Notes: generated by a model not told the origin, from the sequence alone. Shown: positions 15,744-60,424, numbered from the stretch's first letter. The stretch is DNA of 64,000 nucleotides from Bradymonadia bacterium (GCA_049889275.1 JBMHDS010000129.1:28751-92750); one strand, 5' to 3'. Made by a program: numbers and translations.

Positions 15744-17219
15744 ATGCGCATTGGATTGTTAATCGTAGCGTGCCTGATATCGACGCAGGTGAGTGCGCGC
15801 ACAGTGCTCCAAAATGATTCCGTTGTGGCAGGGGCGGAGATCGCGTTTTATCCCAACATGCGGGGCGGCGAATCCTTCGTCTCCATTTTTGATGTGCCAG
15901 CCGAATATGAGAACTATCAGGTCTGCAGAATCTTGCTTTGGATTGGGCCTGCAGGCTTCAACATTTTCACTTTCCGACTGGCCGAAGCAGACGAAAACGG
16001 TAATGAAGCGCAGTTGATTTGGCAGAGTGATCTGGATGCCTATCAGGTTTTTGGCAGCCGTGAACAGCTCAGCAGCGTCGATTTGGCTGCCCTTGGCATT
16101 CGAACCAATGTCAGACGCCTCAGGATCAGGGGAAGGCACGTCGACGGTCAAGGCGCCCCCCCCGGGATCGCGTCCGACACCGACGGGATCACACCCGGCC
16201 GAAACCGTTTACGAATGCTCATGCGGAACGGCGGTTGGTTCAGCGATTTTACAGAAATCCTCGAGGAAAACGGAACACCGCAGCGCCCGCCAGGAGACTG
16301 GATCTTCCGTCTTGAAATCGCTCATTTAGATGAAGCTTGCCCGAACGGCGAAGCGGTCTTACCCGATATGTCGATGCCGCCTCCAGTCCGCGACGCGGCC
16401 GTATCGATGGACGCACAGACTCAAGAACTCGACGCCGGGCTCGCGCCCCCCGATGTAAGCGTTGACGCGGGCGTTGATGCGACACCGATGACCGACACAC
16501 GCCCATCTGTACCGGATGAGGGGTTCGTTGAAGATGCACAGACCATGCGAGCCGATCGCGCGTTCAACGCGCTCGACCCTCTCGAACTCACACGCGTCTC
16601 TCCCGGTGTTGGCCCGCGAGACCGAAACACAGAAGTCGTGATCAATGGACGCGGCTTCCCGGTGGACGAGCCGCCGTTCATTGAACTCGACTCAACGCGC
16701 CTGCTCGAGGTGGACGTTTTGTCAGGCTCGACGATTACAGCGGTCGTCCCCGCGGGGATGGATGAAGGCCTCCACGACCTACGGCTGACTCGTTATGACG
16801 GTCAAGTCGCGCTGTTGCCAAATGCGTTCGAGGTCACGGGCGCAGCACTACAGGTCACAGCGGTCTCGCCGCGTGAAGTCCCGCAATATACCCCCGCGGA
16901 CATCAGTATTCAGGGCCGTGGTTTTGCACCTGAGACCGAGTTTTCAATCGGCGGCGTCGGTTTGCAAAACGTGACCATCGAATCCTCCGAGGTGGCTCGA
17001 GGGACCTTGTCGGCAAGCTTGCCACCCGGTACGTACGACCTTGTGGCCACGAACGAGACCGATAATGCGCGCTTGCTCGACGCCATTACGGTGCTCGACA
17101 ATGGCGGCGCGCGCGGCGCCGATAGCGGTGGCTGTGTACAAGTACCAAAAGACCACCAAAGCCCACTCTACGGCCTCGTTTTGGTGGCGGTTCTCATGAT
17201 GGTGAGGCGGCGGCGTTGA
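15744..17219 (+). CDS. secreted IPT/TIG-domain protein with MYXO-CTERM-like C-terminal sorting signal
   Basis: Signal peptide 'LLIVACLISTQVSA'. Two IPT/TIG-like beta-sandwich units ('VSPGVGPRDRNTEVVINGRGF...', 'VSPREVPQYTPADISIQGRGF...'). C-terminus 'GGCVQ...LYGLVLVAVLMMVRRRR'. Confidence 0.65.
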   Translation: MRIGLLIVACLISTQVSARTVLQNDSVVAGAEIAFYPNMRGGESFVSIFDVPAEYENYQVCRILLWIGPAGFNIFTFRLAEADENGNEAQLIWQSDLDAYQVFGSREQLSSVDLAALGIRTNVRRLRIRGRHVDGQGAPPGIASDTDGITPGRNRLRMLMRNGGWFSDFTEILEENGTPQRPPGDWIFRLEIAHLDEACPNGEAVLPDMSMPPPVRDAAVSMDAQTQELDAGLAPPDVSVDAGVDATPMTDTRPSVPDEGFVEDAQTMRADRAFNALDPLELTRVSPGVGPRDRNTEVVINGRGFPVDEPPFIELDSTRLLEVDVLSGSTITAVVPAGMDEGLHDLRLTRYDGQVALLPNAFEVTGAALQVTAVSPREVPQYTPADISIQGRGFAPETEFSIGGVGLQNVTIESSEVARGTLSASLPPGTYDLVATNETDNARLLDAITVLDNGGARGADSGGCVQVPKDHQSPLYGLVLVAVLMMVRRRR

Positions 17220-19181: not shown

Positions 19182-21644
19182 TCACTGCCCACCACCGAAA
19201 TCAGACGAAGTGCGCGGCATGATTCGTCGACGATCAAAGCGATAGGTCATCACACCTGTAACCGGTACCGAGCCGATGTTGTCGGCCCAATCGTCCGATC
19301 CGTAGCTCCTATCGAATACGATGATTTCATCGTTTGAATCGCCCTGACCCCTGACCGTCCATAGCGCTTCGTCGGAGCAATTTTCATTGTCGACAGCACA
19401 TGAGTAGTTCAGATCACCTGGGACCGCATCGATGAGTCTGACGAGCACACCTTCATAGGCTTCTTCCAAAGCGTCGGCCACAGAGACCTCTGTGACAATC
19501 GGCTCTACACTCATGCCCAGACTGGTGACAATCGCCTCCGAGAGCTGCGTGTCATCGAAATACTCCTGTACGTCCGCGTCGATGGAGATGACATCGCCAA
19601 TTTCATGAGGGGTGTCACCATTGCCCAAGAACACGGCGACACCGGCATATTCACCCGAGCCGCTCTGGACCCAAATACCACGGTCCCAAACGGCGGTGAC
19701 CACCGCTTCGGGAATAAAGACCCGGGTTCCCTCAGAGATCTCGCCTCGCTGGATTTCAGCGATCGTGGCGGGCTGTCCTGCGGCAGGGAGACACACGCTC
19801 TCCGGATTGGGTGCTTCGGGGCAAAAATCGCATGCGTCACCGCGCCGGTCCATATCACTGTCGGTCTGGTCTGGGTTGGCCTCGAGGGGACAATTATCAT
19901 CTTCGTTGGCGACTGCATCACCATCGAGGTCTGAAGGCAGCGGGCTGTCATCACATGCATCGCCCAACCCGTCATTATCCGCATCGCCCTGGGTGTTGCC
20001 CTTGTAGGGTAAGCGCGGGTTGAACACCCTCGGACAATTATCATCGTCATTGTTAATGCCATCACCGTCGAGATCGTTTTCAGTCGGTAAGCCTGAAAAT
20101 TCACCCGGTCGACTCGGGATGCAAGTCGGCTCAGACGGCGGCTCCGAGTCACAGAAGATGGCCGGGTAAGCCGCATTGCCCCCATTGACATCACGCTCGA
20201 TGGTCGCAAAGGAGGTACCAAACTCATCCTGCGCGCAAATCATATATGCCTGCCCACACACATCCATGGTCTCGCAAGTCCTCAGCGCACTGACCAGCGC
20301 CGAGCGGCCAAACAGCGCTTCGCCCCCGCGTAGGACGAGCAGCACATCTTGATTACCGGCATCGATGACCGCGCGGTAGCCGGACGTACGATCACCCGCG
20401 AACACAGTGATATCAGCGAGCTTGCCCTGTTCCAGAGAGCCGATGATATGCTCATTCGCCGTCGCTCGAGCCGCATCTAGAGTCGCCATCAGCCAAAGGT
20501 CGCGATCGGTGAAGTAATTGTCGAGATAGGCGGTATTCCAAGCAGACGCACACGCCAGCTCCCGCAACATGTTCGCAGATCCTGAATAAGTCCAATCCGT
20601 GCTGAGCGCCAGTGTGCCGCCGAACCGGTGAAAGGTCTGCACCTCGGCGGTTGTGCCGTACAGGGAGATGTTCGATCTAGGCGACCAGATGAGCTTAGTG
20701 CCGTCTTGGACCATCGACCAATAATCAGCAGCGTTCAGGCCGATGGAGTGAATGTGGGCTGTATTCTTTTCCGTGAAATCTTGCCCGTTATCAAAGGACG
20801 TACTTTGGCAACGAAATTCCTCTTGTGCATACTCATCGATGCCTTCAGCCACGTGGGGTATGAAGGCTTCGAACTGCGAGACTTCATATTCGTCGTAGCG
20901 ATAATCCCATCCGCAATTAGCCCGAAATCGCCGGTTTGCGTCGCCGAGCGAAAAGGTCTGGAAGGTGACCTGCTTGAAGCCAAGTGCCCGTTCCGCATCG
21001 TCGAGCCTGTCGAGGTTTCTGATCAGGCCATTGGCTTTGCCCGAGCCCACGTAGCCCGTCACACCGCTAAAGAGCATTCGCAGCTCACCCCAACGGTTAC
21101 CGCTCGAATCTGCACCTGTGCCATGGGCATTGGACGGTGTTGAGAGCGCCTGGCGCCATTCGTGCCGATGGTCGTACCGGGTCTCTCCATGGTCGATGGG
21201 GGTGCCCTCAGTGAATGTGAGGTGGTCATGGGGATTGATGAGCCCCGGCGAGATCACCGCATCTCCACAATCGATGCGCGTCGCCATGTCAAAACCCATC
21301 TCATCGGCGCAGTCACAACCCACACAAGCAATGCGCCCATCCACGACGTAAACGGAACCGCGGCTCAAGATGCCGTTGGGAAGCAGCACTGAACCGACTA
21401 AGACCATGGACCCATTTGAACCCTCCGTGATTCGACAGGTCTCATCAGGCCCCAATTCAATCGGTTCGCCGCAGCTTTGGTCGCCTCCGCCAGAATCAAC
21501 AGTAAATCCATCTGATACGCTCTGGTCCATCGGTGCCGCATCTGTAAACGCCATGGCATCGACCGTACTCGATCCGCTACTCGATTCGTCACAGCCGAAC
21601 GTGAGCAAGCAGATGAAGACCAAGATTGCAGATGTATTTTTCAT
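19182..21644 (-). CDS. amidohydrolase-family lipoprotein fused to thrombospondin type-3 (calcium-binding) repeats and a C-terminal beta-rich domain
   Basis: Lipobox 'LTFGCDESS'. Metal-binding 'GLINPHDHLTF'. TSP3 motifs 'DLDGDGINNDDDNCP', '[12 protein letters not shown]', 'DLDGDAVANEDDNCPLEANPDQTDSDMDRRGDACDFCP'. Start at the internal ATG ('MKNTSAIL'). Confidence 0.7.
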   Translation of the reverse strand: MKNTSAILVFICLLTFGCDESSSGSSTVDAMAFTDAAPMDQSVSDGFTVDSGGGDQSCGEPIELGPDETCRITEGSNGSMVLVGSVLLPNGILSRGSVYVVDGRIACVGCDCADEMGFDMATRIDCGDAVISPGLINPHDHLTFTEGTPIDHGETRYDHRHEWRQALSTPSNAHGTGADSSGNRWGELRMLFSGVTGYVGSGKANGLIRNLDRLDDAERALGFKQVTFQTFSLGDANRRFRANCGWDYRYDEYEVSQFEAFIPHVAEGIDEYAQEEFRCQSTSFDNGQDFTEKNTAHIHSIGLNAADYWSMVQDGTKLIWSPRSNISLYGTTAEVQTFHRFGGTLALSTDWTYSGSANMLRELACASAWNTAYLDNYFTDRDLWLMATLDAARATANEHIIGSLEQGKLADITVFAGDRTSGYRAVIDAGNQDVLLVLRGGEALFGRSALVSALRTCETMDVCGQAYMICAQDEFGTSFATIERDVNGGNAAYPAIFCDSEPPSEPTCIPSRPGEFSGLPTENDLDGDGINNDDDNCPRVFNPRLPYKGNTQGDADNDGLGDACDDSPLPSDLDGDAVANEDDNCPLEANPDQTDSDMDRRGDACDFCPEAPNPESVCLPAAGQPATIAEIQRGEISEGTRVFIPEAVVTAVWDRGIWVQSGSGEYAGVAVFLGNGDTPHEIGDVISIDADVQEYFDDTQLSEAIVTSLGMSVEPIVTEVSVADALEEAYEGVLVRLIDAVPGDLNYSCAVDNENCSDEALWTVRGQGDSNDEIIVFDRSYGSDDWADNIGSVPVTGVMTYRFDRRRIMPRTSSDFGGGQ

Positions 21645-21790
21645 GGCTAACCCCTCTATTGGTGCAACACAATAAGGGTAAGGCAGGCGCGGTTTCAACT
21701 AATGTGTCGGCCTCGAGCCTGCAATCCGTCGCGCGGGCCGCGCGTGGGACGCCCATGGTTAATGGCGGTTGAACCCATTACGATTGACCG

Positions 21791-23750: not shown

Positions 23751-24003
23751 CGTGACCGTCTCCCACCAATCTGGGCGCCGACCCTGGGGCGCCCGTCGTA
23801 CTTATGATTCAAGCGCACATCTGTGGCTATCGAACTCGGCACTCGAGCCAATATTTATGCCTTGGTGTGCCACCCCTCGTCGGCTACACTACCATATGAG
23901 CTTCAGTGACGCTCAAATGTTTCAGGGCGTCTTGAGTGAGAGATTGAGCCTGCGGACGTAAGGCCCATTGGGCTGGTCTGATGCTTTAGATATGGAGTAC
24001 GAG

Positions 24004-25062
24004 ATGAGGCGCATCCGCTTGGCCCTTATGGCGACCTTGGTCATTTTCTCAATCGGCTGTGGGACCGATGACGATGCGTCGTCGGACATGATGTTTACAC
24101 TGGATGGGGGCATGCACAACGCGCAACCCGACAGCACAGCACCCACCATCGAAAAACCCGACTGTGTCTCAGCAACACTGCCGACGGCGATCCCGGCGAC
24201 GCTGGAACAGGACACATCGACGTCAAACGACACCTTTGGCCCTGCACCGTGCGTGGTCGATGGCACGGACGGGTCGAACGATTTCTCAGTGTTTTTTGTG
24301 GCGCCCGCCGCGGGTCAGTACCGTTTTAGCACCTTAGGTTCGAGCTTTGATACGGTGCTGCATGCACGCACGCCCGCCTGCGATGGCGAGCCTATCGAGT
24401 GCAATGACGATGCAGAAGAGACGACGTCGGCCTTCACCTTGGCGCTCGATAGCGGCGAGGCCGTGATCCTTGTCATCGATGGTTTTAATCGGGAAACGGG
24501 CCGAGCTGTCCTCACTGTGAGTGGCGTTGAGACCGCCTGTGACAACGGCATGGATGATGATAATGACGGTGTGTCCGATTGCGACGACAGCGATTGTTTT
24601 CTCAGCTGCGAGGATCCTGCCGACTGGCCGCAACCCTGGGTCGAATATGAGCGTGAGGTCTTAGAAGAGACCAATCGGGCGCGGGCTGAAGCACGTAACT
24701 GTGCCAACGACCGGTTTGAGCCCGCGCCGCCCCTTGAGATGGACATCTACCTGACCTACAGCGCCCGCCTCCATGCACGTGACATGGGCATCAATGATTA
24801 TTTTGAGCATACCAGCCTCGACGGTCGGTCAGCCACTGACCGCATGCGCCAAGCAGGCTTTATGGGCGCCTCACCCACAGGAGAGAACATCGCTGCCGGA
24901 CAAAATAGCCCAGCGGAAGTGGTGCAAGCCTGGATCGACAGCCCCGGTCATTGTCGAAACCTGATGGATCCAGAGTACCGTGTACTCGGCGTTGGCTATT
25001 CCGATGGACATGAGGGGCAATTCTCAAAGTTTTGGGTGCAGAACTTCGGTGGTTCACACTAG
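24004..25062 (+). CDS. secreted CAP/SCP (PR-1-like) domain lipoprotein with N-terminal PPC-like beta domain
   Basis: Lipobox 'VIFSIGCGTDDD'. C-terminal CAP signature 'GHCRNLMDPEYRVLGVGYS' and 'GENIAAGQNSPAEVVQAWIDSPGH'. Confidence 0.7.
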   Translation: MRRIRLALMATLVIFSIGCGTDDDASSDMMFTLDGGMHNAQPDSTAPTIEKPDCVSATLPTAIPATLEQDTSTSNDTFGPAPCVVDGTDGSNDFSVFFVAPAAGQYRFSTLGSSFDTVLHARTPACDGEPIECNDDAEETTSAFTLALDSGEAVILVIDGFNRETGRAVLTVSGVETACDNGMDDDNDGVSDCDDSDCFLSCEDPADWPQPWVEYEREVLEETNRARAEARNCANDRFEPAPPLEMDIYLTYSARLHARDMGINDYFEHTSLDGRSATDRMRQAGFMGASPTGENIAAGQNSPAEVVQAWIDSPGHCRNLMDPEYRVLGVGYSDGHEGQFSKFWVQNFGGSH

Positions 25063-27722: not shown

Positions 27723-30700
27723 TCAGGCGGCTGGAATCAGGGTGTGCTCGACCAGTGGTGGCCCGGGCTGAGGCTGCTTCCAAAACCCAACCCAGGCATC
27801 CCACATCAAACGTTGGGCACCAAAGAAGAGGCTCATCGCCATCGGATCGGGCCTACCTAAACCTCTCAGTTGAGCGCGCGCCTGTCCTAAATCATAGATA
27901 GACTCGAGTTGTTTTGTTTGCTCTGACCAGGCGACCACATGGCCGGAACGAATATCGTAGGTCTCCTCAATGCCCAATACCGATTCGAGCTGTTCGCGTA
28001 CAATCTCCACGCCAGCGAGCTTGTAGTAGCCTGTTAATGCAGCGAGCAGCCAACCCAACGATTTGTCATCGAGCGTGGATACCCAGCCCGACTGCAGCGT
28101 ACCGACCACCAACCACCCCGACTTCTCTTCGAAAGCAATTTCGAATGGCCGCTCCCCCGCCTTACGACCGATCTCGACGGTGATTCGGTGGCTGCTCAAA
28201 CCGATATGTCTAACATGGGTCTTCCACAGCGCCGGCGTCGGCGCCATTGACAATGTCTTGATCAAAAACCGTGTGGTAAAGCGCTCGATCGCTGCCTCTA
28301 CGTGATGCAAACCTTCTTCAAATTTAACGGTCTTATGACCCTGTCCTTTGTGTTGAGCGAGCCTAAGCTTTCCGTACAGCGAGGGCAGCGTGCCCGAATG
28401 AAAGCCCGGCTTCATAAAGCGAAGCATCGTTTCACTGTGGTCGCCGATAATCTCCGTTTTAAAACCACCCCCCTGATTCGCGGCATACAAATTCCAATTG
28501 CTCTTAAACTCCCAAACGAGAAAGCCAAAGACACCAGGCAGTAAAACCACAGTCGCCGTTGCAATCGCATTGCCGATGACAACACCAAACACAGGCACCA
28601 AGGGGGTGGCGAACAGCGTGATCAATGTTTTTGTCAGCGGCAAAATAATCTTGTGCGACACGGTGACCACCGGAAAATGTTTGATTGGGTTGACCTGTGG
28701 TTCCACGAGCAGATTGATATAGATTCGGATCAGGTAGGTGCAGATGAACCAAGGTATGTTGAGCGCAAGCTTGAGGCCAAAGGTCAGACGACTGTCACCG
28801 CTTCTTAAGCGGAGCCATTCGTCGACGGTATAGATCGCGCGCTCCATGTATTCGATCATCCGATTGAAGGCTTGCATGACCAACTCGAACACACCGGGAA
28901 TGACATGGAACCGAACCGCCCGCCAGCTTCGAAACATCAACTCTGAGACCCCCTCTTCAAACCAACGCCAAGGGCCAGAGTTGAGGATGATGTTGGTGCA
29001 GATGAACAGGCTGCTCAGGATGATGTCTGCAGACAAACCAAAAAGTGGAAAAACCCTGATGACAGTCCAGGTAATGGCTGTGGCAAGGGATGGCTTCACA
29101 ACAAACTGAATACTGAACCGATACACGGTATGTGCTGTCAAACGACGCACCCAATCTTGCCTCATGAATCGAACCGGACCGTCTACGACGATGAACCTGA
29201 GTGCGCGCCAGGCGCTTTGAGCTGCCCGCACGACCACATTGAGCACTCTGCGCGAGTGAATCATAAAGCCGATCAACAAACCGAGCGCGCCGATGGCAGG
29301 CCAGCTCACAATACTGGCCGGACTCGAGGTGAATTTGTTGACCGCGACCATGATAGAATGCTCCAGCCCTTCCAAGAGCACAAAGGCCCCACCGAATGGA
29401 AGAACGAGGTACAGGGTCAATAGACGGCCGAGCGCGGTACCGAAGCTGAGTGAGCTCAGTTTTTGCAAACCACGCATATAAACCTCACCGCGGCGGTACA
29501 CGCCCGGCAAAGCGTCGGCGAGTCGTCTGTCAGCTCTGAGAAGTTTGTCGCCCGAGAGCAGTGCCTTTGCCGTCACATCGGGCAGTTTGAGGTCGTTCTG
29601 CGCGATCACATCGCGCAAATCACCGATATTGATAAATCCTCGGTTACAAATACGATCGAGCAACTCTTCTGTCAGCTTGGCCCATTCTATGGACTCAGCG
29701 CGATTGCTCGGTACCATTTCGGCTGCCTCTAGGGCCGCACTGATGACGCTTCGAAAGTCATCACGCAGCGCGCGTTCGCAATGGACCTCGAGATGACCTA
29801 ACTGAAGAAGTAAGGACTGAGCATCGAGTCTTGACAAACGGGTCTTGGCGATGCGCTTCATCGCCCCTCGAAGCCGCCTCAACATCTGGACTCGACGTTG
29901 CTTGCCTAACTCTTGGACCAGAGACCTTTGTCCGCGAGAACGGATCCAATCGATGGGCGCGAGTTGGTGCAGGGTCTCTTCGTGCGCGATGCACACTTTT
30001 TCGAGGTCATACAAGACCCGAGCTTCCACATTGAAGCGTTGTTTTTCGCAGTGACTCAGCAGCGAAATCAGCGACTGTGTCACGACGTCGACATCGGTGT
30101 CTGCCGAGGGGATCGCCTGAAGCAAGCGCTCAGCCAAGGTCTCCACGGCCAATCGAGCCCGATCAAGATCGGCTTCAGCGGACCTCCGATCACCATCGCT
30201 CACCCGCGCAGCGGTCGCATACAGAATCGCCGTTCGGGCGGCATTACCCTTGTCTCGAAACGTACCTGCGATCGCCCGCAAATTCGATGCAGTCCGCTCG
30301 GAGACGGGGCTGAGCGGTGCGCGCTGCGGCATCACCGGTGCGGTTGTTTTTTCAGCACTCGGTGGCATGCCGGCGCACAGAGCCGGTCTGCATGCATTAA
30401 GGATGTCTGCTTCGTCAACCTGGCCCAGCACGATGCCTGCAATATGTGGATGGTCGGACTGATGAGGAAAGGTCGCCAAAAATCCGTCCGGATCAAAATG
30501 TCGCAGCTCGAGATAAGTCGCGATGAATTCGCAATAAATCGCCCGATCATCATCCGGCTGAGCCACCCGACCCATGTGCTGAATTGCGGCGCGGATCTCA
30601 TCAAACTGGGTCTGTCCAATCCGATTGATCGTATCCCAGACAGCGTCATTGGGGAGCATGCCCGCATCGACCTGACGCCTCAACTCAGCGGTCAACAGCG

Positions 30701-31073
30701 CATAGAAGGCAAGCCTCCAACTTCGTCGTGCCAGATAGACTCTGCTGCGACTTCGCAACTCATCTACAGTGGGCTCAACCAAAACATAGACGCATGGAGC
30801 ATCTGACTGTGAGCGCGCCGCACGCAGCGCGGGTAGCGCGCGCCCTTGTGCCGGTGAGACTGAGAAGGACTCAAGTTCAGCCACATCGAATCCACGTTTT
30901 TTCTCAGCAAAAACCGCCTTGGCGGCCCGCCGAAAATAACGGCGCGATAACATCACCGCATCGGGCAGGTCTCGGGTGAGTTCCGACTTCAGCTCCGCCA
31001 AGAGCACGCTCCGCTCCGACTGACCCCTCGGTCCCTTTAACCCATCGCCTCGGGCGCCTTGCTCCATCAACAT
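27723..31073 (-). CDS. large (1116 aa) hypothetical membrane protein; soluble N-terminal ~520 aa plus C-terminal multi-TM region
   Basis: Single uninterrupted ORF. About 10 hydrophobic helices between aa ~560 and ~900. No recognisable catalytic motif. Transcribed immediately downstream of the MCE-domain gene. Confidence 0.6.
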   Translation of the reverse strand: MLMEQGARGDGLKGPRGQSERSVLLAELKSELTRDLPDAVMLSRRYFRRAAKAVFAEKKRGFDVAELESFSVSPAQGRALPALRAARSQSDAPCVYVLVEPTVDELRSRSRVYLARRSWRLAFYALLTAELRRQVDAGMLPNDAVWDTINRIGQTQFDEIRAAIQHMGRVAQPDDDRAIYCEFIATYLELRHFDPDGFLATFPHQSDHPHIAGIVLGQVDEADILNACRPALCAGMPPSAEKTTAPVMPQRAPLSPVSERTASNLRAIAGTFRDKGNAARTAILYATAARVSDGDRRSAEADLDRARLAVETLAERLLQAIPSADTDVDVVTQSLISLLSHCEKQRFNVEARVLYDLEKVCIAHEETLHQLAPIDWIRSRGQRSLVQELGKQRRVQMLRRLRGAMKRIAKTRLSRLDAQSLLLQLGHLEVHCERALRDDFRSVISAALEAAEMVPSNRAESIEWAKLTEELLDRICNRGFINIGDLRDVIAQNDLKLPDVTAKALLSGDKLLRADRRLADALPGVYRRGEVYMRGLQKLSSLSFGTALGRLLTLYLVLPFGGAFVLLEGLEHSIMVAVNKFTSSPASIVSWPAIGALGLLIGFMIHSRRVLNVVVRAAQSAWRALRFIVVDGPVRFMRQDWVRRLTAHTVYRFSIQFVVKPSLATAITWTVIRVFPLFGLSADIILSSLFICTNIILNSGPWRWFEEGVSELMFRSWRAVRFHVIPGVFELVMQAFNRMIEYMERAIYTVDEWLRLRSGDSRLTFGLKLALNIPWFICTYLIRIYINLLVEPQVNPIKHFPVVTVSHKIILPLTKTLITLFATPLVPVFGVVIGNAIATATVVLLPGVFGFLVWEFKSNWNLYAANQGGGFKTEIIGDHSETMLRFMKPGFHSGTLPSLYGKLRLAQHKGQGHKTVKFEEGLHHVEAAIERFTTRFLIKTLSMAPTPALWKTHVRHIGLSSHRITVEIGRKAGERPFEIAFEEKSGWLVVGTLQSGWVSTLDDKSLGWLLAALTGYYKLAGVEIVREQLESVLGIEETYDIRSGHVVAWSEQTKQLESIYDLGQARAQLRGLGRPDPMAMSLFFGAQRLMWDAWVGFWKQPQPGPPLVEHTLIPAA

Positions 31074-31085
31074 ACCATGCTCCGT

Positions 31086-32042
31086 CTACTCACCGATTGC
31101 GGTGATCGTGAGCTCGAATGTCACAAGGTTGTCGCGCGTCAGCTCGAGCGTTTTTGTGCCTGTGATCTCGCGAGCTGAGGCCGGCAAGACAACGGAGCCG
31201 ATTGTATCATCGTTTCGAAGGTCTCGGTCGACGACTCTGATGCCAACACTCTGCCCCTCTGGCCACGAAAACACCTCGGATATTAGATCATGGGGCCCGA
31301 GATCGAGAGCGTAGGTGTTTTGATAGCGTGCGCTTTGCAGAATATTTGTGTCACCACACCAAGCCTCGAAAACGAGATCTGGCGCGCCTTGCAATACGTC
31401 CCAAGCCTTTCCATTTAGCTTTGAGTCTGCGACTGAGACACGCCGCACAGCAATTCGAAAGCGCTTTTCCACGGGCGTGGGGGCTGCGTCGACTGCGATC
31501 GCGGCATCTGCTTTACTCAAGGCAGCGATGGCGGTCACTTGCGTTGTCGACGTGTCGACGTCTGCACCCTGAATCGTCTGAGGGTTTTCGACGCGTGGTT
31601 CGACCTGTAGAAGCGCTTGAGCGGCCCGCAAATGGTCACCGTCATGAATCAAAGGGCCGGGTGGTGTCCCAGGTATCAGCTGCAGCGTCTTGCTCGTTTT
31701 CTTGTCCGTCTTTGAGATCACCTGATGGGTCATTCGCCGATCCATGAGATAGCGGTATTGTCGCTCAGCGCGGACCCGAACCCGCTGTCCTTCAGTGCGC
31801 TGAAGCACCTCGGCTACGCGTCCAACCACCATCTCATCGACCGCGACCAGATCGCCTTGGGTCAATGCGTTAGGCTGGCTTACCCAGACGGTGAATTCAA
31901 TCTCCTCTGTGTTTGGATCGGTGGTCTGAAAATGCCAAAACCCGATCAGCAACGCTGTGCAAGCGAGGGCGATGAGAACAGCTCGAATCGGTGAGATTCT
32001 AGGGTCTGAATCAAGCATTCCAAGACATCCGAGGGGGCACAT
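31086..32042 (-). CDS. MCE/MlaD-domain protein (single N-terminal TM plus MCE beta-barrel)
   Basis: TM 'AVLIALACTALLIGFW' followed by 'EIEFTVWVSQPNALTQGDLVAVDEMVVGRVAEVLQRTEGQRVRVRAE', which is MlaD-like. An alternative start at 32018 is possible. Confidence 0.5.
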   Translation of the reverse strand: MCPLGCLGMLDSDPRISPIRAVLIALACTALLIGFWHFQTTDPNTEEIEFTVWVSQPNALTQGDLVAVDEMVVGRVAEVLQRTEGQRVRVRAERQYRYLMDRRMTHQVISKTDKKTSKTLQLIPGTPPGPLIHDGDHLRAAQALLQVEPRVENPQTIQGADVDTSTTQVTAIAALSKADAAIAVDAAPTPVEKRFRIAVRRVSVADSKLNGKAWDVLQGAPDLVFEAWCGDTNILQSARYQNTYALDLGPHDLISEVFSWPEGQSVGIRVVDRDLRNDDTIGSVVLPASAREITGTKTLELTRDNLVTFELTITAIGE

Positions 32043-32238
32043 TTGTCCACAGTTAGACTGAACTATACATAGCCGGTAATTTCAACTCACAAGGAATCGG
32101 CGCAAGCCATTCTGAGACGGGTCAATATATCTCCAAGCGCACCAACCGCTTCGAGCAGCGAAACATTCGCGAAAAGCGTGAAAAGTCATCGAGCGTAGAC
32201 TAATGTGGCTCACAGGCCAGTGTTTACGGGAGGGCTCC

Positions 32239-34995
32239 ATGTGGTTTCGGTACATAGGTTTGGTAATGGTGTTCCTCGCGAGTCAGTCCGCACCTGTGTG
32301 GTCGCTGCCGAATCAATTTGCTCAATCAGGCTTTCTGACCGACGGAGATGATAGGCCACTCGATGGGCTCTTCAACATTCGAGTTTTACTGCATGACAGG
32401 GCCGAGCCACGCAATGCACAACTCTTGTTCGAAGAGCTCCATCAAAACGTCGTTGTGGAGGACGGATGGTACTTTGTTCACGTGGGCAGCCAAGATGAAT
32501 TGCCCAGTGCGCTTTTTCAGCGGGATGCGCTGTATTTCTCTATCTCCGTAGATGGCGGCCGAGAGGTCACGCCGAGGATCTCCTTAGGCCAAGTACCCGC
32601 AGCGTTTATCGCTAACGTTGCTCTGAACGTGATCGGCGACATCGAGCCCCGCAGTGTGCGTATCAATGGCCAAGTGGTCATCGATGAGAATGGACGATGG
32701 GTCGGTGCACCGGCCGGTTTAGCGGGTCCCGCGGGTCCTGAAGGGCCGGCCGGTCCGGCTGGTCCCCAGGGGCCTCAGGGTGAACCGGGCGCTGGTGGTT
32801 CGGACACCCCCGCACAAGTCCTGGCTAAACTGCTCACGGTAGATGGTCGAGACAGTCGTCTGGACAGTGACCTACTCGACGGCTTCACGAGTGATGATTT
32901 TGTTCGCACAGCGGGACAAGTCTTGACCCGACTCAGAGCCGTGGACGGCTCTGGTTCCGGTGTCGATGCGGACCGATTAGACGGCTTGGACAGCAGCGAA
33001 TTTGTACGAACCGCAGCCGAGGTATTGGCCCGTCTTCGGACAGTCGATGGCGTCAACTCAGGCATCGATGCCGACCGTTTTGATGGTCTCGACAGCAGTG
33101 AGTTCCCTCGCACAGGCGCCCAGATACTTGAGAGACTGCGCGAGGTCGACGGCGAAGATTCCAGGCTTGATGCAGACCGTTTAGATGGGTTGAACAGCGG
33201 TCAGTTCATGCGCACAGACCGAGATACTGGCACACTCGGCAACCTAAATGTAACGGGGGCCGTCACGGCTCAACACCTGCGCATGGGCGCAGGTTCGACC
33301 ATCGGCGTCGGCGTGGCGCAGCCGGCCGCTGAGGTGGATGTCAATGGTCGGATACGGGCCAATTCTCTGGTCCTGACACCGCAAGCAGCCCCCCCTGAAC
33401 AGCCCACCGCCGGCCAAGTTTATTTCGATGAGGAGATGGCCACGCTTCGATTTTTTAACGGACAGGAATGGGTCAGCCTAGGGGCCGCGCCGCCAGACCC
33501 AGATGCAGAACGTGTCGACGACTATGTGGCACTCGTGAGAGGCCATGGCGCGATCGCCTATTGGCGACTCGACGATGAAGCCGGCCCAGCACTCGACAGT
33601 TCGGGTTCTGGCCATCACGGGAGCTATCAGGGAAACGTCATCCGAGCAGCAGAAGGCGCGATCGGACCTGGTGTGAACATTAATGAGGCCGGTTACATCG
33701 ATACACCCGTCGGTCTCAACGACCTAATCCGCAACGGAACGGCCGCAACTGTTACAGCCATCGTCAGACTGCCGAACGATTTCACTCAGGGTGGTGACCG
33801 TCCCTTCCGCTCAACACACCATATCTGGTCTACATTTGCCTATTGGCAGGGGGCAAGTATTGGGACTGTCGCGGGCGTTTCCGGCGTCCATTTCTGGAGT
33901 TTTTACAACGGCAGTAATGAGTATAAGATCAGCATCGGGGCTCAACCGGGTACCTGGGTACATGTCGCCTGGGTTTACCGGGGCAATCAGTTCTGCGGTT
34001 ACGTAAACGGCATCGGTCAATGCGTCAACGCGCCACTGCCCATCGAGCGCAGCAGCAATCGCCTGTTCAACATTGGCCGTTTTCATCAAGACCAAACCTT
34101 TCCGCCAACCTATCCCTCCGTGATTCAACATGTTGCCGTTTTCAATCAGTCGCTCACCGTTGAACAAATCCGTGAACAGGTCACCGGCTTGAGGGGCGAT
34201 ACCGTTCTCGACGGGTCAACGCGGGAATTGGCGGCGCCGACATGTCGAGAACTGCTCGAATCAAACCCACAGCTCGCCGGCCAGGACGGTGGTTATTGGA
34301 TCAATCCATACAGTCCCAACCCGAACGATGCCGTCCAAACCTACTGCGATATGAGCACCGATGGGGGCGGCTGGACGCTGGCGGCGTATTCGAGCGAGGG
34401 CAGCGGTGGGGGCGCCGATTGCCCTGCACGAGCGAGGCGGAATTTGTTTCCGATGAGTGAAGGTGGTGGCGCTTTCGAATTGGGCCGCCAAAATCCCGCG
34501 GCCTCGCTGCGCGCGGTGCCAATTGCCCGCCGCTCCCGGGACATGCTCCTGGCCCGGTCTAATCTGAACCGGTATGCGGGTAATATCGCGGGTCACACGG
34601 TCGCGACCAAGATCCGGATCCCCAACCCAGCCGTCGTCACATTGGCCAACGCGAGTAACCAGGCGGGAGAAGATCGGGGTGAGTGCGTGCGGGCAGAGAT
34701 CACCACGCTCGTCGGTCCCAATGCCACAGGCGCGGTGCGCTACTGGTTCAACCGCTCCCTCTCGGCGAGCTGGACCGACACCTATCCAACGAGTTATGGC
34801 GTCAGTGGTGCGGCGACATGTATGAACAATACACAAGGTCCTGCCTTCGCCACCTCATTCACGGGCCGTTCAGCGAGGCAACGGTATTGCTGGCCACACG
34901 ACGAACAAGGCGGTGCGTACTCTTACTGGCACAGGGGCTGGTACGATCCCACGGCTGATAGTCGTGGCGGTGCCGTCAGCATATGGTTTCGATAA
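32239..34995 (+). CDS. secreted multidomain protein: short collagen-like segment, four ~33-aa tandem repeats, LamG/pentraxin-like domain, fibrinogen C-terminal (FReD)-like domain
   Basis: Signal 'MWFRYIGLVMVFLASQSAPVWS'. Collagen triplets '[29 protein letters not shown]'. Repeats 'A.VL.RLR.VDG..SG.DADRLDGLDSSEF.RT' x4. FReD signature 'CRELLESNPQLAGQDGGYWINPYSPNPNDAVQTYCDMSTDGGGWTL'. Confidence 0.7.
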   Translation: MWFRYIGLVMVFLASQSAPVWSLPNQFAQSGFLTDGDDRPLDGLFNIRVLLHDRAEPRNAQLLFEELHQNVVVEDGWYFVHVGSQDELPSALFQRDALYFSISVDGGREVTPRISLGQVPAAFIANVALNVIGDIEPRSVRINGQVVIDENGRWVGAPAGLAGPAGPEGPAGPAGPQGPQGEPGAGGSDTPAQVLAKLLTVDGRDSRLDSDLLDGFTSDDFVRTAGQVLTRLRAVDGSGSGVDADRLDGLDSSEFVRTAAEVLARLRTVDGVNSGIDADRFDGLDSSEFPRTGAQILERLREVDGEDSRLDADRLDGLNSGQFMRTDRDTGTLGNLNVTGAVTAQHLRMGAGSTIGVGVAQPAAEVDVNGRIRANSLVLTPQAAPPEQPTAGQVYFDEEMATLRFFNGQEWVSLGAAPPDPDAERVDDYVALVRGHGAIAYWRLDDEAGPALDSSGSGHHGSYQGNVIRAAEGAIGPGVNINEAGYIDTPVGLNDLIRNGTAATVTAIVRLPNDFTQGGDRPFRSTHHIWSTFAYWQGASIGTVAGVSGVHFWSFYNGSNEYKISIGAQPGTWVHVAWVYRGNQFCGYVNGIGQCVNAPLPIERSSNRLFNIGRFHQDQTFPPTYPSVIQHVAVFNQSLTVEQIREQVTGLRGDTVLDGSTRELAAPTCRELLESNPQLAGQDGGYWINPYSPNPNDAVQTYCDMSTDGGGWTLAAYSSEGSGGGADCPARARRNLFPMSEGGGAFELGRQNPAASLRAVPIARRSRDMLLARSNLNRYAGNIAGHTVATKIRIPNPAVVTLANASNQAGEDRGECVRAEITTLVGPNATGAVRYWFNRSLSASWTDTYPTSYGVSGAATCMNNTQGPAFATSFTGRSARQRYCWPHDEQGGAYSYWHRGWYDPTADSRGGAVSIWFR
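32815..33226 (+). repeat. four in-frame tandem repeats of ~99 bp inside the collagen/FReD gene
   Basis: Units: 'AQVLAKLLTVDGRDSRLDSDLLDGFTSDDFVRT', 'AGQVLTRLRAVDGSGSGVDADRLDGLDSSEFVRT', 'AAEVLARLRTVDGVNSGIDADRFDGLDSSEFPRT', 'GAQILERLREVDGEDSRLDADRLDGLNSGQFMRT'. Confidence 0.6.
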
Positions 34996-37538
34996 TGGAG
35001 ACACTGATGCAGAAATACCCATGGGCGATGTGTTGCCTGACCATCACATTTACGCTGGGGTGCAACTCGGACTCAGGTGCAGGGGGCCCCGCGCCCGGAA
35101 TGGATATGGCAGGGAGCGATGCCGCCGTTGATGCGGCCCCAGCACCAGACCGATCGATCACGGCTCCTGACGCTGACCGACCCGATTGCGGTGGCTGCAG
35201 TGGCCAGCAGGTCTGCAACCCTGAGACCTTAGAATGCGAAGAACCGGACCGCTGTGACGGCGATGTGGATTGCGTCGAGAGCCGCGTGTGCATCGAGTCC
35301 GCTTGCGCGACGCCCTGTTCAGTGACTGGTTGCAGGGCGGGACTGCTCTGCCTCGATGACGGACGCTGCGGCGAGAGTACACCCTGTGAGGGTGACGAGC
35401 AATGTCTCGACGGCCGTCTGTGCGTTAACGCTCAATGCGTTGATGCGTGTGATGAGGACGCCGATTGCCCAGGACGCCAATCATGTGATGTGGAGACGGG
35501 TCGCTGCGGACTCGAGGGAGATTGTCAAAACGATGCCGACTGCAACGGCCTGCGGTGTACTGACGGCGTTTGTGTTTCGATGTGCAGCGCGATGATGCCC
35601 TGTCCTGGACGGCAAGCCTGTGCCGATGGACGTTGCTTCGAGCCCGAAGCATGTGAACTCGCCATCGATTGCATCGGTGCTCGGGTGTGCGCACTCAACC
35701 GCTGCGTCGAGCCCTGCCAAGAAGATGCAGACTGTCCAGAAGCCAGACGATGCGACCAAGAGACAGGCCTATGTCCTGAGCCAATGTCGTGTATGGCCGA
35801 TGAGGCGTGTGACCCAGGAAGGCGTTGTGTGGCGCGGCAATGCGCTGATGCCTGCGTGCCAGGCGAGTGCCCGGGCGGCCAAACCTGTTCGGAGGGCGTA
35901 TGCATTGAGCCCGACCGCTGTATTGGTGATATCGACTGCCTCGGTCGGCGACTCTGTGTGAGAGACAGATGCTCGGAGCCATGCGCTGATAACAGCGACT
36001 GCCTCGGCTCCGATCTGTGCGAGCCTGAATCGGGTCGCTGCGTTGAGTTCCAACCGGAGTGTATTCTCGATGGTGATTGTCCAGGTGAAGCTGCTTGTAT
36101 CCTCGGTACCTGCCGAGAAGGCCGATGCGAGGCGCATCGTAATTGCGCAGATGGCCTGGACTGCATCGACGGAGGCTGTGCCCCACCCTTGAGACCAATG
36201 TGTCGCGTCGATGCAGACTGCGGGAATGGTGAGGTGTGTGGTGACATCGGCCGCTGCGTTGACGCCTCGCCTTGTGAAGAGGATGGGGATTGCGAAGGTC
36301 TGCGCGGTATTTGCTACGCTGGTCAATGCATTGATTGTCGCGTCGACAGCGACTGTTTCCCGAGCGAAATTTGTGCCGGGTATCGTTGTGAATCCAGCGG
36401 TTTTTGTATGGTCGATGGAGACTGTCGCGGTGTCGGCAGCACGTGCATCGACAACCAATGTGCACCACGGGCATGCGTAGGTGACGAATATGACTTGCGT
36501 TTAGGCAGCCCACAGCTCGCGCCTCGAACCTATACCAATATGGTGCTGTGCGATGACGATGTGGACGTCTATCGCATTGAGATTGGACCCAACGAGGGGG
36601 TCTCCGCCCGCATCTCCCATGAGCCCGGAGCAGGAGATATCATGCTAACGCTGCGCTCCCTGGACGAAGAAGCCGTCGGTGTGAGTGAAGCCGGTGTTGC
36701 CCGTGCGGGCCTGCTTGCGCGTGGACTGCCCCGCATGATCGATATCATCATTTCGGGTCGACCAGGCTCCACTACAGCCTATACGCTGGATCTACGGATT
36801 CAATCTGCGGCGGTCTGTGCACCGGATAACTTTGAGCCTCCATTGGGCAATGCATCTCAGGACCAGCCCCAACAACCCCTCGGACAGGCGCCGCCCCTCG
36901 TGAGCCGTCTTTGCCAAGGAGACGTCGACTGGTTTGCAGTGACCGTACCCGGCGGCGTCACGCTGACCACGACCCTGAGCAGCGATCGCTTAAACGCAGT
37001 GGAGGCAACAATACTCGACGCCCTTGGACGGCCTGGGCCCGATTTCGAGAATACAGGACGCGATAAGCGCGCCGTCAGCGCGCCAATGCGCCGCACCGAT
37101 TATCGGGTGGGACTCTCGCTGCAGGCAGGCGCTGACAACGCCACCAGCTTCCTCGACTTTAACATCGAGATCTTACCAGGCGCGCGCGCTGCTGCATGCC
37201 TCGATGCCCCTCTAGCGGTGGTTGGTCGTCCTTTTTGGTTCGCCCCCCAACTCGCCGCGGACCGGTTTAGTCTGACGTGTGATGCAGATGCGACGTTTAA
37301 TGACCGAGTCGCCCGATTTCGTATCGCTGAGCGTGGGCTCTACCGCATCCTCACCGCTCAACCCGACCGCGGCACTCGTATCGCCGTCAGACAGAGCTGC
37401 GTTGATAACGCCACGGAGATCGCCTGCGAGCTCGGCGGGGAGATTCCAGCGCTGATGTTGGAACCAGGCGAATACAGTCTAATCATCGACTCACCGCTCA
37501 ACTCGATCATGGGTTTTACCGTCACCCCTGTTCGATAG
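34995..37538 (+). CDS. secreted cysteine-rich repeat protein (~20 CxxDxDC-type modules) with C-terminal PPC-like beta domain
   Basis: ATG overlaps the upstream TAA (TAATG). Lipobox 'ITFTLGCNSD'. Repeats such as 'CDGDVDCVESRVCIESAC', 'CEGDEQCLDGRLCVNAQC', 'CDEDADCPGRQSCDVETGRC'. C-terminus 'DVDVYRIEIGPNEG'. Confidence 0.7.
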   Translation: METLMQKYPWAMCCLTITFTLGCNSDSGAGGPAPGMDMAGSDAAVDAAPAPDRSITAPDADRPDCGGCSGQQVCNPETLECEEPDRCDGDVDCVESRVCIESACATPCSVTGCRAGLLCLDDGRCGESTPCEGDEQCLDGRLCVNAQCVDACDEDADCPGRQSCDVETGRCGLEGDCQNDADCNGLRCTDGVCVSMCSAMMPCPGRQACADGRCFEPEACELAIDCIGARVCALNRCVEPCQEDADCPEARRCDQETGLCPEPMSCMADEACDPGRRCVARQCADACVPGECPGGQTCSEGVCIEPDRCIGDIDCLGRRLCVRDRCSEPCADNSDCLGSDLCEPESGRCVEFQPECILDGDCPGEAACILGTCREGRCEAHRNCADGLDCIDGGCAPPLRPMCRVDADCGNGEVCGDIGRCVDASPCEEDGDCEGLRGICYAGQCIDCRVDSDCFPSEICAGYRCESSGFCMVDGDCRGVGSTCIDNQCAPRACVGDEYDLRLGSPQLAPRTYTNMVLCDDDVDVYRIEIGPNEGVSARISHEPGAGDIMLTLRSLDEEAVGVSEAGVARAGLLARGLPRMIDIIISGRPGSTTAYTLDLRIQSAAVCAPDNFEPPLGNASQDQPQQPLGQAPPLVSRLCQGDVDWFAVTVPGGVTLTTTLSSDRLNAVEATILDALGRPGPDFENTGRDKRAVSAPMRRTDYRVGLSLQAGADNATSFLDFNIEILPGARAAACLDAPLAVVGRPFWFAPQLAADRFSLTCDADATFNDRVARFRIAERGLYRILTAQPDRGTRIAVRQSCVDNATEIACELGGEIPALMLEPGEYSLIIDSPLNSIMGFTVTPVR

Positions 37539-58742: not shown

Positions 58743-58858
58743 TTCCCCTCACCTCCAAGAATCGGACAATGAAATGATTAAGCGCATCTTCAGAAACTTT
58801 CGTTGTGATCCGCGCTCGACATGTCCAATATAGAGCAAATCGTTAATTGGAGCACCCT

Positions 58859-60424
58859 ATGAAGCGTCTCATCTTTTGTTCTCTTGCACTGGTATTGGCC
58901 CTTGGATGCGGGTCTGATTCCGACCCAGGCATCGGTGGTGCAGGTGGCACGGGTGGTACAGCAGGCACCGGTGGCACGGGTGGTAGCGCGGGCACGGGTG
59001 GCACTGTCGGCGGCGAAGACTGTAACGGCGTCGACGACGACGGTGATGGTGCAATCGACGAGGGCGTCGGTACGCGGGTGTGTATGTCGGCATGCGGTAC
59101 GGGTAATGAAGTTTGCCAAAATGGCGCGTGGGGCGGCTGTGACGCACCACCGGTGGTCGAAGAATTCTGTGATGGCGCCGATAACGATTGCGATGGCCAG
59201 ATCGATGAGGCGCTCACGCGCACATGCTCGTCGGACTGTGGCGACGGCTCTGAGAGCTGCATGAACGGTGATTGGGTCGGATGTGACGCACCGCTCGGCG
59301 ACGCTGAGAGTTGCGATGGTGCGGATAATGACTGCGACGGTCGCGTCGACGAGAACGTTTATCAGACCTGTACAGTGGCATGCGGTGAGGACAGTGAGAT
59401 CGAAGGCACTGAGGTGTGCGTGAACGGTACCTTTCAGGACTGTAGTGTCGTAGGTATCCCGGAGGAGACCTGTGGCAACGGCATGGACGATGACTGCGAC
59501 GACGCGGTAGACGAGGGCTGTGGCTGCCAGGCCGGCGACACCAAGCCTTGTTCGTCGGATGTGGGCGCTTGCAGCCGAGGCACCCAGACGTGTGATGAGG
59601 CGGGCGAGTGGGGGCCGTGTCTAGACGACAATGGCGACGCTGTACTTTCGCCGGGCGAACAACCGGAGGACTGTAATGGCATCGACGATGACTGTAACGG
59701 ACGCGTCGACGACCTAGAGCTCAACATGCCCTGCTCAAGCGATGTAGGCGCGTGCGTCATGGGTCAACTGACATGTGAGAACGGCGTACGGGCATGCGTC
59801 GGCGGTGTCGAGCCATCGGAAGAGACCTGTGATGCCATCGACAATGACTGCGATGGCACAGTGGACGAAAACACCGTACCCGCGCCTGAGGCCTGTGATG
59901 GCCGCGATAACGATTGTGACGAGCGCGTCGACGAAGATGTGGCCCCTGACCAGTGGGAGGGTGACAACGGCAATCAAGTCTGTGCTGGTGCTTACGAACT
60001 CGGTGAGATCCAAGAGGATGAAGAAAACCCAGCGTCTTTTGTCGGCCAGATTCAGAACGGTGCCGATACCGATACATATCATTTCGTCGTCAACGAACGA
60101 ACCCGGGTCGGCATCAACGGAAATGACATCACCGTCAGGGTTGAGTTGACTGAGGCAGACCCAAACCTCGAGTGGACGATGTGTGTTCGACTGTTGAGTC
60201 AAGATTCGGCCATAAACCCCTTTGCCGGTGCACCGGATCTAGAGGAGGCATGTGGAGTCGAGGAACAGTGCGTCGATGTCGTCAATGGCATTGGCACTTT
60301 TCAGCAAGTTGTGACCGATCGGAATGCGCGGAGCGATGATACCCGAGTGGTTGTCAAAATCAGTGCACCCCAAGCCGCAGCCTGCGCTCCTTATCGCATC
60401 ACGTACGATGCGGACGCGCCGTAG
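58859..60424 (+). CDS. secreted lipoprotein with seven MopE-like putative metal-binding repeats (CxGxDxDCDGxxDE) and C-terminal PPC-like domain
   Basis: Lipobox 'LVLALGCGSD'. Repeats 'CNGVDDDGDGAIDEG', 'CDGADNDCDGQIDEA', 'CDGADNDCDGRVDEN', 'CGNGMDDDCDDAVDEGC', 'CNGIDDDCNGRVDD', 'CDAIDNDCDGTVDEN', 'CDGRDNDCDERVDED'. C-terminal 'DTDTYHFVV'. ATG 58859 with SD 'GGAG'. Confidence 0.65.
   Translation: MKRLIFCSLALVLALGCGSDSDPGIGGAGGTGGTAGTGGTGGSAGTGGTVGGEDCNGVDDDGDGAIDEGVGTRVCMSACGTGNEVCQNGAWGGCDAPPVVEEFCDGADNDCDGQIDEALTRTCSSDCGDGSESCMNGDWVGCDAPLGDAESCDGADNDCDGRVDENVYQTCTVACGEDSEIEGTEVCVNGTFQDCSVVGIPEETCGNGMDDDCDDAVDEGCGCQAGDTKPCSSDVGACSRGTQTCDEAGEWGPCLDDNGDAVLSPGEQPEDCNGIDDDCNGRVDDLELNMPCSSDVGACVMGQLTCENGVRACVGGVEPSEETCDAIDNDCDGTVDENTVPAPEACDGRDNDCDERVDEDVAPDQWEGDNGNQVCAGAYELGEIQEDEENPASFVGQIQNGADTDTYHFVVNERTRVGINGNDITVRVELTEADPNLEWTMCVRLLSQDSAINPFAGAPDLEEACGVEEQCVDVVNGIGTFQQVVTDRNARSDDTRVVVKISAPQAAACAPYRITYDADAP

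Follow-up and report, generated by a model that had tools for sequence, protein, structure and literature searches.

The fibres called mosaic adhesive trimers (MATs) of Bdellovibrio bacteriovorus are proteins of ~1000 amino acids (aa) in which a beta-rich domain, conserved and ~130 aa long, follows the signal peptide. They are described as phage-like trimeric fibres with interchangeable adhesive tips that are displayed on the cell surface, and one of them binds prey glycans (PMC10769870, Caulton et al. 2024). In that account, the N-terminal domain (N-domain) is reported to be without a PDB homologue, the "surface element" that holds the fibres is described as still unknown, and the tips listed for strain HD100 include none of fibrinogen- or LamG-like type; the examples in its supplement comprise Bradymonadaceae, Myxococcales and one FGE tip (PMC10769870). 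Here we describe a gene on the + strand of a 64,000-nt stretch of DNA from a Bradymonadia bacterium (GCA_049889275.1, JBMHDS010000129.1:28751-92750), which is referred to below as the window. The gene encodes a secreted protein with a LamG domain and a fibrinogen/intelectin-like domain at its C terminus, hereafter the fibre protein, which we regard as probably a cell-associated adhesive fibre of the MAT type.

Like MATs, the fibre protein and its relatives are ~900 to 1000 aa in size, with several paralogues per genome, and have a signal peptide followed by a conserved beta-rich N-domain of ~130 aa without a PDB homologue, a long phage-like fibre and a constant N-terminal part topped by interchangeable adhesive or lectin tips. 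Sites resembling the capping loop of MATs occur in some members of the family, and an FGE tip is found in both (P0092 in our set). The differences concern stalk, tip and neighbourhood. The stalk consists of collagen triplets plus 34-aa Asp-rich repeats, whereas that of MATs is mainly beta-helix, and the tip is LamG plus a fibrinogen/intelectin-like domain, compared to the S74, TNF-like, C-type lectin, SPRY and beta-sandwich tips reported for MATs. In addition, the fibre protein has a conserved Cys-rich lipoprotein as its neighbour, while the parts of PMC10769870 consulted mention no such neighbour for MATs.

Phage and bacterial fibrinogen-related domains (FReDs) related to intelectins have already been discussed, and intelectin-1 and a lamprey lectin are known to be built from trimers (PMC9682848). 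In our literature search, nothing was found that links fibrinogen-like domains with myxobacteria. As a bacterial GGGWT/fibrinogen-like protein and a probable mosaic fibre of the MAT type, the fibre protein falls within known kinds. What it adds is a new type of tip, ~200 residues in the tip domain that have not been catalogued before, and a lipoprotein partner that is conserved.

Gene and C-terminal head of the fibre protein

The open reading frame (ORF) listing showed a single long ORF of 930 aa in this region, at 32203 to 34995, and residues are numbered throughout from this longest version. Its first start codon lies 36 nt upstream of the ATG at 32239, and only the second one has both a Shine-Dalgarno sequence (GGGAGGG, 5 to 6 nt before the ATG) and a proper signal peptide directly after it. 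Translation thus most likely starts at 32239 and not at 32203, the choice also made in a first-pass annotation of this DNA. The orthologues carry AxA-type cleavage sites followed by a shared mature N terminus, LP[ND][QH]F. Full-length orthologues (912 to 924 aa, 52 to 75% identity) came from marine metagenomes and metagenome-assembled genomes (MAGs), and the opposite-strand ORFs are unsupported, since conservation tracks the + frame in all homologues. The gene is real and encodes a secreted fibre protein of a marine bacterium of the Myxococcota/Bradymonadia type. From its N terminus, the protein is made up of signal peptide, N-domain, collagen triplets, four repeats, neck, LamG domain and C-terminal globular domain (Table 1), and the order collagen, tail-fibre-like repeats, LamG and fibrinogen-like motif is the one that had been annotated earlier.

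Both parts of the head were recognised by curated profiles. The Pfam model PF13385 (Laminin_G_3) matched aa 558 to 656 with 35.9 bits against a cutoff of 27.6 (E 1e-8, profile positions 49 to 150 of 151), and orthologues were matched with E values down to 1.1e-12, which bears out the LamG-like domain of the first-pass annotation. For its part, the fibrinogen-like motif CRELLES...GGGWTL (aa 681 to 726, nt 34243 to 34380) was matched over aa 680 to 726 by the NCBIfam model NF040941 ("GGGWT_bact"), with 53.8 bits against a cutoff of 30 and an E value of 1.4e-14 (profile positions 1 to 45 of 46), and is thus present far beyond chance. Since NF040941, which comprises 46 residues and bears the name "fibrinogen-like YCDxxxxGGGW domain-containing protein", is a curated bacterial model, the signature had already been catalogued in bacteria.

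The animal-type profiles gave more limited results. Fibrinogen_C (PF00147) stayed below its cutoff of 22, with 17.4 bits for the full protein and 19.7 bits for the domain alone, and its match covered only ~35 residues (profile positions 18/19 to 53 of 221); some match to it at an E value of 0.01 or lower was obtained in 30 of the 34 family members. The A-subdomain signature C681...YC715DMSTDGGGWTL is present, both cysteines and DM..GGGW being invariant in the family alignment. COLFI (PF01410) reached 29.4 to 30.1 bits against a cutoff of 26.2 over profile positions 9 to 70 of 233 only, a match to the module shared with FReDs and not to a whole COLFI domain. Of the three profiles with which the first-pass annotation had proposed to check the protein, LamG was thus found, whereas Fibrinogen_C and Collagen (PF01391, 15.7 bits against 27.2) fell short of their cutoffs.

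When a profile of the family was compared with PDB sequences, the lamprey lectin 7e1e (4e-13), XEEL (3e-12) and intelectin-1 (5e-12) scored best, followed by FReDs at ~1e-9 and COLFI (collagen C-propeptides) at ~5e-7. Every printed alignment, and nearly all rows, were confined to ~50 to 100 residues at the start of the domain. The intelectin alignment spanned profile positions ~57 to 142 only, with no match through the intelectin-specific region beyond the module, and an hhalign comparison with human intelectin-1, for which an approximate sequence was used, returned the same 54 columns only (probability 97.9%). As judged from these alignments, the GGGWT motif reflects true homology with animal fibrinogen-fold proteins.

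The ~50-aa YCDM-GGGW module also occurs alone, in up to 15 tandem copies, in the giant proteins P0122 (4522 aa), P0123, P0125 and P0129, and thus behaves as an autonomous unit, separate from the remainder of the fibrinogen fold. Some of these module-repeat proteins also have Sushi/EGF or lamin-tail domains.

Beyond the module, the domain was followed as a whole. An exhaustive HMMER scan of 1.84 billion cluster representatives from genomes and metagenomes yielded 1332 relatives of the C-terminal domain at an E value of 1e-3 or lower, and the whole 250 to 260 aa were matched in at least 58 cluster representatives. In these, the domain is nearly always C-terminal, in proteins of widely differing length, and sometimes occurs twice in tandem. 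The family alignment showed two invariant Cys pairs (681/715 and 828/873) and conserved motifs far past the module (SW-D-YPT-YG, GP and a C-terminal IW[FL]R). An AlphaFold2 (AF2) model built with this alignment gave one compact domain, with a predicted local distance difference test (pLDDT) value of 91.5 and a predicted template-modelling (TM) score of 0.91. All 94 matches that Foldseek found for it in the PDB at E values below 1e-3 were fibrinogen-fold lectins or receptors. XEEL and intelectin-1 ranked best (E ~1e-6, TM score 0.48 to 0.50, Foldseek probability 1.0, root mean square deviation [rmsd] 8 to 9 Å), the entries 4wmo, 4wmq, 6usc and 5zc0 having TM scores of 0.45 to 0.50; tenascin, ficolin, FIBCD1, angiopoietin and fibrinogen followed with query-normalised TM scores of 0.28 to 0.39. 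Sequence similarity thus ends early, yet the model of the whole domain matches fibrinogen-fold structures only. The outcome that the first-pass annotation had named as refuting, a likeness that does not go beyond the ~45-aa motif, was not observed. The first-pass annotation had considered the domain a possibly minimal FReD variant that is rare in bacteria. The domain, which is compact and kept intact across at least 58 cluster representatives, is, as modelled, a full-size divergent relative of the fibrinogen/intelectin fold and not a minimal one. Rarity was likewise overstated, given the 1332 relatives and a bacterial annotation name already in use, and the domain is no new kind of thing in bacteria, in view of the curated NF040941 model, that name, and the bacterial and phage FReDs treated in PMC9682848.

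Relatives named "fibrinogen-like YCDxxxxGGGW domain-containing protein" were found in Bdellovibrio, Archangium, Nannocystaceae, Gracilibacteria and Elusimicrobiota, and those of Bradymonadia are named "fibrinogen-related protein". Among predicted viral structures, Foldseek retrieved proteins of T4-like cyanophages (E 2e-9 to 2e-4) annotated as "fibrillar collagen NC1", "fibrinogen C-terminal" or "tail fiber-like", and the module was detected by tblastn in the Synechococcus phages S-CAM4 and ACG-2014j.

The head shares with NF040941 proteins the motif that passes the curated cutoff, but its module stands at the start of a 260-aa domain that is conserved and located at a fibre tip, and the remaining ~200 residues match no curated family. 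Intelectins and X-type lectins (4wmq, 4wmo and 7e1e) are its best sequence and fold matches, and they have in common with it GGGWTL(V/A)A where FReDs have GGGWTVFQ; however, the alignable sequence ends after ~55 to 80 residues and the rmsd is large. With ficolins and other lectins that combine a collagen stalk with an FReD head, it has in common the collagen-like segment upstream of the fibrinogen fold, in a molecule presumed to be trimeric; such a layout suits multivalent glycan recognition. It differs from them in having ~470 residues of other modules between collagen and head, a Fibrinogen_C score below threshold and query-normalised TM scores to ficolins of only 0.30 to 0.37.

N-domain, stalk and modular family

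The N-domain, presumed to be the cell-proximal end of the protein, was modelled by AF2 as all-beta with pLDDT values above 90. Nothing significant was found for it by Foldseek among PDB folds, and since the matches were generic beta-sandwiches only (best E 7e-3), the search gave no clue to an anchor. Similarly, tblastn returned no phage match for this domain.

The short GXY collagen stretch that had been annotated was seen directly in the translation; with 10 triplets, it is too short to reach the Pfam Collagen cutoff, which is passed by paralogues of the fibre protein. Most of the close orthologues keep 10 or 11 triplets.

The four tandem repeats that follow were also present, with a period of 34 aa (102 bp) instead of the 33 aa (99 bp) annotated before. 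Nor are they near-identical, as had been stated: the copies share 52 to 64% identity in DNA and 53 to 74% in protein, and they are too diverged for Tandem Repeats Finder, which reported no repeat in the region from 31000 to 36000, so that the idea of near-identical copies was dropped. Most orthologues have four copies, three have 3 and two have 5. The repeats are thus old and diverged, their number shifting only across long evolutionary distances. Since the copies are diverged and four of them are kept in most orthologues, slippage-driven length polymorphism, for which the first-pass annotation had considered the repeats a likely site, is unlikely.

The likeness of the repeats to phage tail fibres was confirmed in both protein families and individual proteins. 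Among PHROG families, phrog_19602 matched them with an E value of 2.9e-14 and phrog_21412 with four stretches, and in tblastn searches the repeats plus the neck resembled annotated tail fibre proteins of Campylobacter phages (35 to 39% identity over ~150 aa), with further matches in roseophages and cyanophages. In the AF2 monomer model, the repeats form helix-loop-helix units with moderate confidence. The neck reached pLDDT values of 82 to 95 over most of its length and was matched by phrog_8309 at aa 389 to 436. Against PDB sequences, the only match of repeats plus neck was to an EF-hand protein (2pmy), with a nonsignificant E value of 0.25. The Asp-rich repeats were considered as EF-hand-like Ca sites, a candidate that this sole match leaves unsupported; calcium binding by the stalk is, on sequence grounds, possible but unsupported.

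The capping loop of MATs was searched for with a hidden Markov model (HMM) built from Supplementary Fig. 18 of PMC10769870 (motif xVGIGTxxPxxKLx). It located 25 sites of 5 to 13.5 bits, spread over 16 of the 120 family members, whereas shuffled controls gave no such site. A crude position-specific scoring matrix for the loop, run on the fibre protein itself, gave a nonsignificant result, its score being reached by 866 of 2000 shuffles.

Segment-wise comparison of the fibre protein with its 120 best homologues revealed a common plan, consisting of the N-domain, an optional collagen part, a variable number of 34-aa repeats, an optional neck and differing C termini. N-domain and stalk are common to more than 100 proteins of the Myxococcota type that carry different tips. 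Those of P0015, P0023, P0053, P0086 and P0092 comprise Fibrinogen_C (three times), CTHRC1_C (three times), Xlink, FG-GAP and FGE-sulfatase, which we call animal matrix-like tips on the same N-domain and stalk. The tip of P0015 has three Fibrinogen_C domains (profile positions 3 to 180), and that of P0092 is FGE-sulfatase. Genome matches of the fibre protein were found in Bradymonadia (66% identity) and in MAGs of Nannocystaceae, Kofleriaceae and Polyangiaceae, and the same N-domain heads a collagen-rich protein of 1563 aa in Pseudoalteromonas. Genomes have several fibre paralogues, at scattered loci, and none of them lies inside the 64-kb window.

Cys-rich lipoprotein partner

The gene that follows overlaps the 3' end of the fibre gene by 13 nt and encodes a Cys-rich lipoprotein (Table 1), for which neither NCBIfam nor the PDB sequences gave a match. 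A homologous Cys-rich gene directly adjoins the fibre gene in 11 of the 12 evaluable close loci, in varying orientation: it is syntenic with the window in Tara contig L014 (8183 to 10720) and divergent or convergent at L001 (5438 to 7915), L006, L015/L016 (3360 to 5906 in L015) and L017 (3218 to 5698). The partner is also found at L002, L003, L018, L019 and L021, whose fibres have the N-terminal part in common with the fibre protein and diverge from it past that part. No Cys-rich gene was present beside the fibre gene at L005, or beside the distant N-domain proteins at L007, L008, L010 and L013. The homologues have 825 to 2092 aa, with a Cys content of 8.6 to 9.8% where measured, and a lipobox or lipoprotein signal peptide was found in all five orthologous partners examined.

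The remaining neighbours of the orthologues are unrelated housekeeping genes. Because the partner is conserved while the other neighbours differ between loci, fibre and lipoprotein are likely to form a functional pair. Co-transcription of the two in the window is suggested by the 13-nt overlap, since the promoter and terminator scan found sites no more numerous than in shuffled sequences. Within a few kb of the pair, large serine recombinase or TrbI/CagX-type conjugation genes were encountered at two orthologous loci (L001, 2701 to 4380; L017, 153 to 1834), a hint that mobile DNA may in some cases carry the two genes.

A more far-reaching proposal, which we hold to be speculative and rather improbable, is that fibre and DUF7107 lipoprotein form a conserved two-gene module in which the lipoprotein is the outer-membrane anchor or docking partner of the N-domain. 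If so, the lipoprotein anchor would be the "surface element" described as still unknown in PMC10769870, and the LamG plus intelectin-like head would represent a bacterial counterpart of the glycan reading of animal ficolins and intelectins, used for recognition of prey or neighbours.

Proposed function, alternatives and surroundings

Taken as a secreted, cell-associated adhesive fibre of the MAT type, a reading to which we assign a probability of roughly 0.6, the protein would work as follows. The Sec signal peptide would export it, and the conserved beta-rich N-domain would hold it at the surface of the producer. Collagen triplets, neck and the four tail-fibre-like repeats would together make up a trimeric stalk, on which three lectin-type heads are displayed, each consisting of the LamG domain and the divergent fibrinogen/intelectin-fold domain. 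The heads may bind a carbohydrate, or an epitope of similar kind, at the surface of other cells, and prey is a plausible target because predators predominate in the lineage and among the relatives with this domain. The adjoining Cys-rich lipoprotein would be the cognate partner, and possibly the surface anchor.

Several points weigh against this interpretation. The likeness of the N-domains to those of MATs is one of plan, as described in PMC10769870, the PDB entries of Bdellovibrio MATs being C-terminal fragments only. The capping-loop site of the fibre protein itself, TIGVGVAQPAAEVD, scores only 1.0 bit. Trimerisation is suggested by the 10 collagen triplets and by analogy with phage fibres, while AF2 modelled the stalk, as a monomer, with low confidence only (pLDDT 50 to 70). 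The similarity of the tip to known folds is moderate (TM score ~0.5, rmsd 8 to 9 Å over the Foldseek alignment), and a predatory lifestyle of the source organism is surmised from its relatives.

The resemblance to phage proteins raises the question of whether a chromosomal prophage, a tailocin or a contractile injection system could be the source of the gene, with its product serving there as tail fibre or receptor-binding protein. Repeats, neck and tip fold are indeed shared with phage tail fibres (Campylobacter phage CP220 group, roseophage SIO1 and T4-like cyanophages), the repeats and neck matching tail fibre families as well as annotated tail fibre proteins and the tip fold being present in proteins of cyanophages, among them one with the annotation tail fiber-like. 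Some orthologous loci also lie close to genes for a serine recombinase or TrbI/CagX. However, the protein has a Sec signal peptide, needless for phage fibres, and a bacterial N-domain without a phage match, and its several paralogues per genome are scattered. The surroundings are not those of a phage either, since none of the 30 ORFs of the 64 kb that were compared with Pfam matched a family of capsid, terminase, sheath, tube or baseplate proteins or any other structural family of phages or tailocins, and in the orthologous loci the fibre gene is likewise not among such genes, its neighbours there, apart from the partner, being housekeeping genes. The window is ordinary chromosome, with genes for methionyl-tRNA synthetase, an RsmB-type methyltransferase, endonuclease I and metabolic enzymes and for many secreted proteins. 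A phage or tailocin origin of the fibre is thus very unlikely in our view. Still less credible is a recent acquisition of the fibrinogen-like motif from animals, or contamination of the contig with eukaryotic DNA. The motif has a local identity of 35 to 49% over ~55 residues to animal FReDs and intelectins, and animal-like modules (TSP_3, CAP) occur in many neighbouring genes. Yet the ORFs are long and uninterrupted, a Shine-Dalgarno sequence precedes the start of the fibre gene, its neighbours are bacterial housekeeping genes, and its GC content (58.8%) is close to that of the window (56.6%). The whole 260-aa domain is kept in at least 58 diverged cluster representatives, the named relatives being bacterial, and outside the module its sequence cannot be aligned with animal proteins. 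That the module is widespread in bacteria and cyanophages also argues against recent import from animals.

It could also be argued that the protein is a structural, collagen-like filament of the matrix or surface layer, in the manner of BclA or Scl, whose head serves self-assembly and not the recognition of foreign cells. Collagen triplets followed by a globular C-terminal head would fit this explanation, as would the first ~60 residues of the head, which pass the COLFI cutoff with 29.4 bits, the C-propeptide being the part that directs chain assembly. In the same sense, the gene for the 1563-aa N-domain protein of Pseudoalteromonas lies beside one of O-antigen-ligase-like type and one for a giant cadherin/Ig protein, and an SLH-domain gene lies two genes off in one orthologous locus. 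However, the triplets number only 10, COLFI is covered over positions 9 to 70 of 233 only, and the best fold matches are lectins. The swapping of lectin-type tips on a constant stalk is, moreover, a signature of recognition proteins and not of a scaffold, and we consider a structural filament unlikely.

If the fibre is indeed an adhesin of the MAT type, heads of LamG plus fibrinogen/intelectin fold would join the tips known from MAT-like fibres, be these predatory or adhesive. As modelled, the bacterial GGGWT module can stand at the start of a full 260-aa fibrinogen-fold domain outside any curated family. The evolution of animal innate-immune lectins such as ficolins and intelectins gains a branch well populated by bacteria and phages, which needs a place in every rooted phylogeny. 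The conserved lipoprotein neighbour, for its part, offers a concrete candidate for holding such fibres on the cell surface. Current understanding is not overturned by these results, whose reach is modest.

Table 1. Positions of the fibre gene, its segments and other features in the window
Feature	Position (nt)	Strand	Basis or remarks
TIG	15744-17219
Right-handed beta-helix	17216-19174
TSP type-3 repeats fused to amidohydrolase	19182-21698
CAP/SCP	23968-25062
Protein of 1116 aa without family match	27723-31073	-	Upstream of fibre gene
MlaD/MCE-like protein, 318 aa	31086-32042	-	Upstream of fibre gene
Fibre protein gene	32239-34995	+	ATG 32239, 918 aa; ORF list, Shine-Dalgarno, full-length orthologues
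Sec-type signal peptide MWFRYIGLVMVFLASQSAPVWS	32239-32304 (aa 13-34)	+	Read from sequence; mature protein from LPNQF
Beta-rich N-terminal domain, ~130 aa	32305-32697	+	AF2; immediately after signal peptide
Collagen-like stretch, 10 GXY triplets	32716-32805 (aa 172-201)	+	Regular expression on translation
Four tandem 34-aa (102-bp) Asp-rich repeats, xxQVLxRLRxVDGxxSGxDADRLDGLDSSxFxRT	32809-33216 (aa 203-338)	+	Phage-tail-fibre-like stalk
Neck	33217-33612	+	AF2, PHROG; degenerate capping-loop-like motif TIGVGVAQPAAEVD at 33298-33339
LamG/concanavalin-like jelly-roll domain	33613-34197	+	Pfam match nt 33874-34170
C-terminal 260-aa globular fibrinogen/intelectin-like domain	34210-34992	+	GGGWT module nt 34240-34380
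Cys-rich DUF7107 lipoprotein gene, 851 aa, 87 Cys	34983-37538	+	Pfam DUF7107; lipobox TLGC
MopE metal-binding motif	58847-60424

Apart from the fibre gene and its partner, the window has a high density of ORFs for products with modules of extracellular type, several of which resemble those of eukaryotes; they lie between the TIG and CAP/SCP genes and at the MopE motif (Table 1). The two opposite-strand genes upstream of the fibre gene, encoding the 1116-aa protein and the MlaD/MCE-like protein, form a pair that is syntenic in Tara contig L014.

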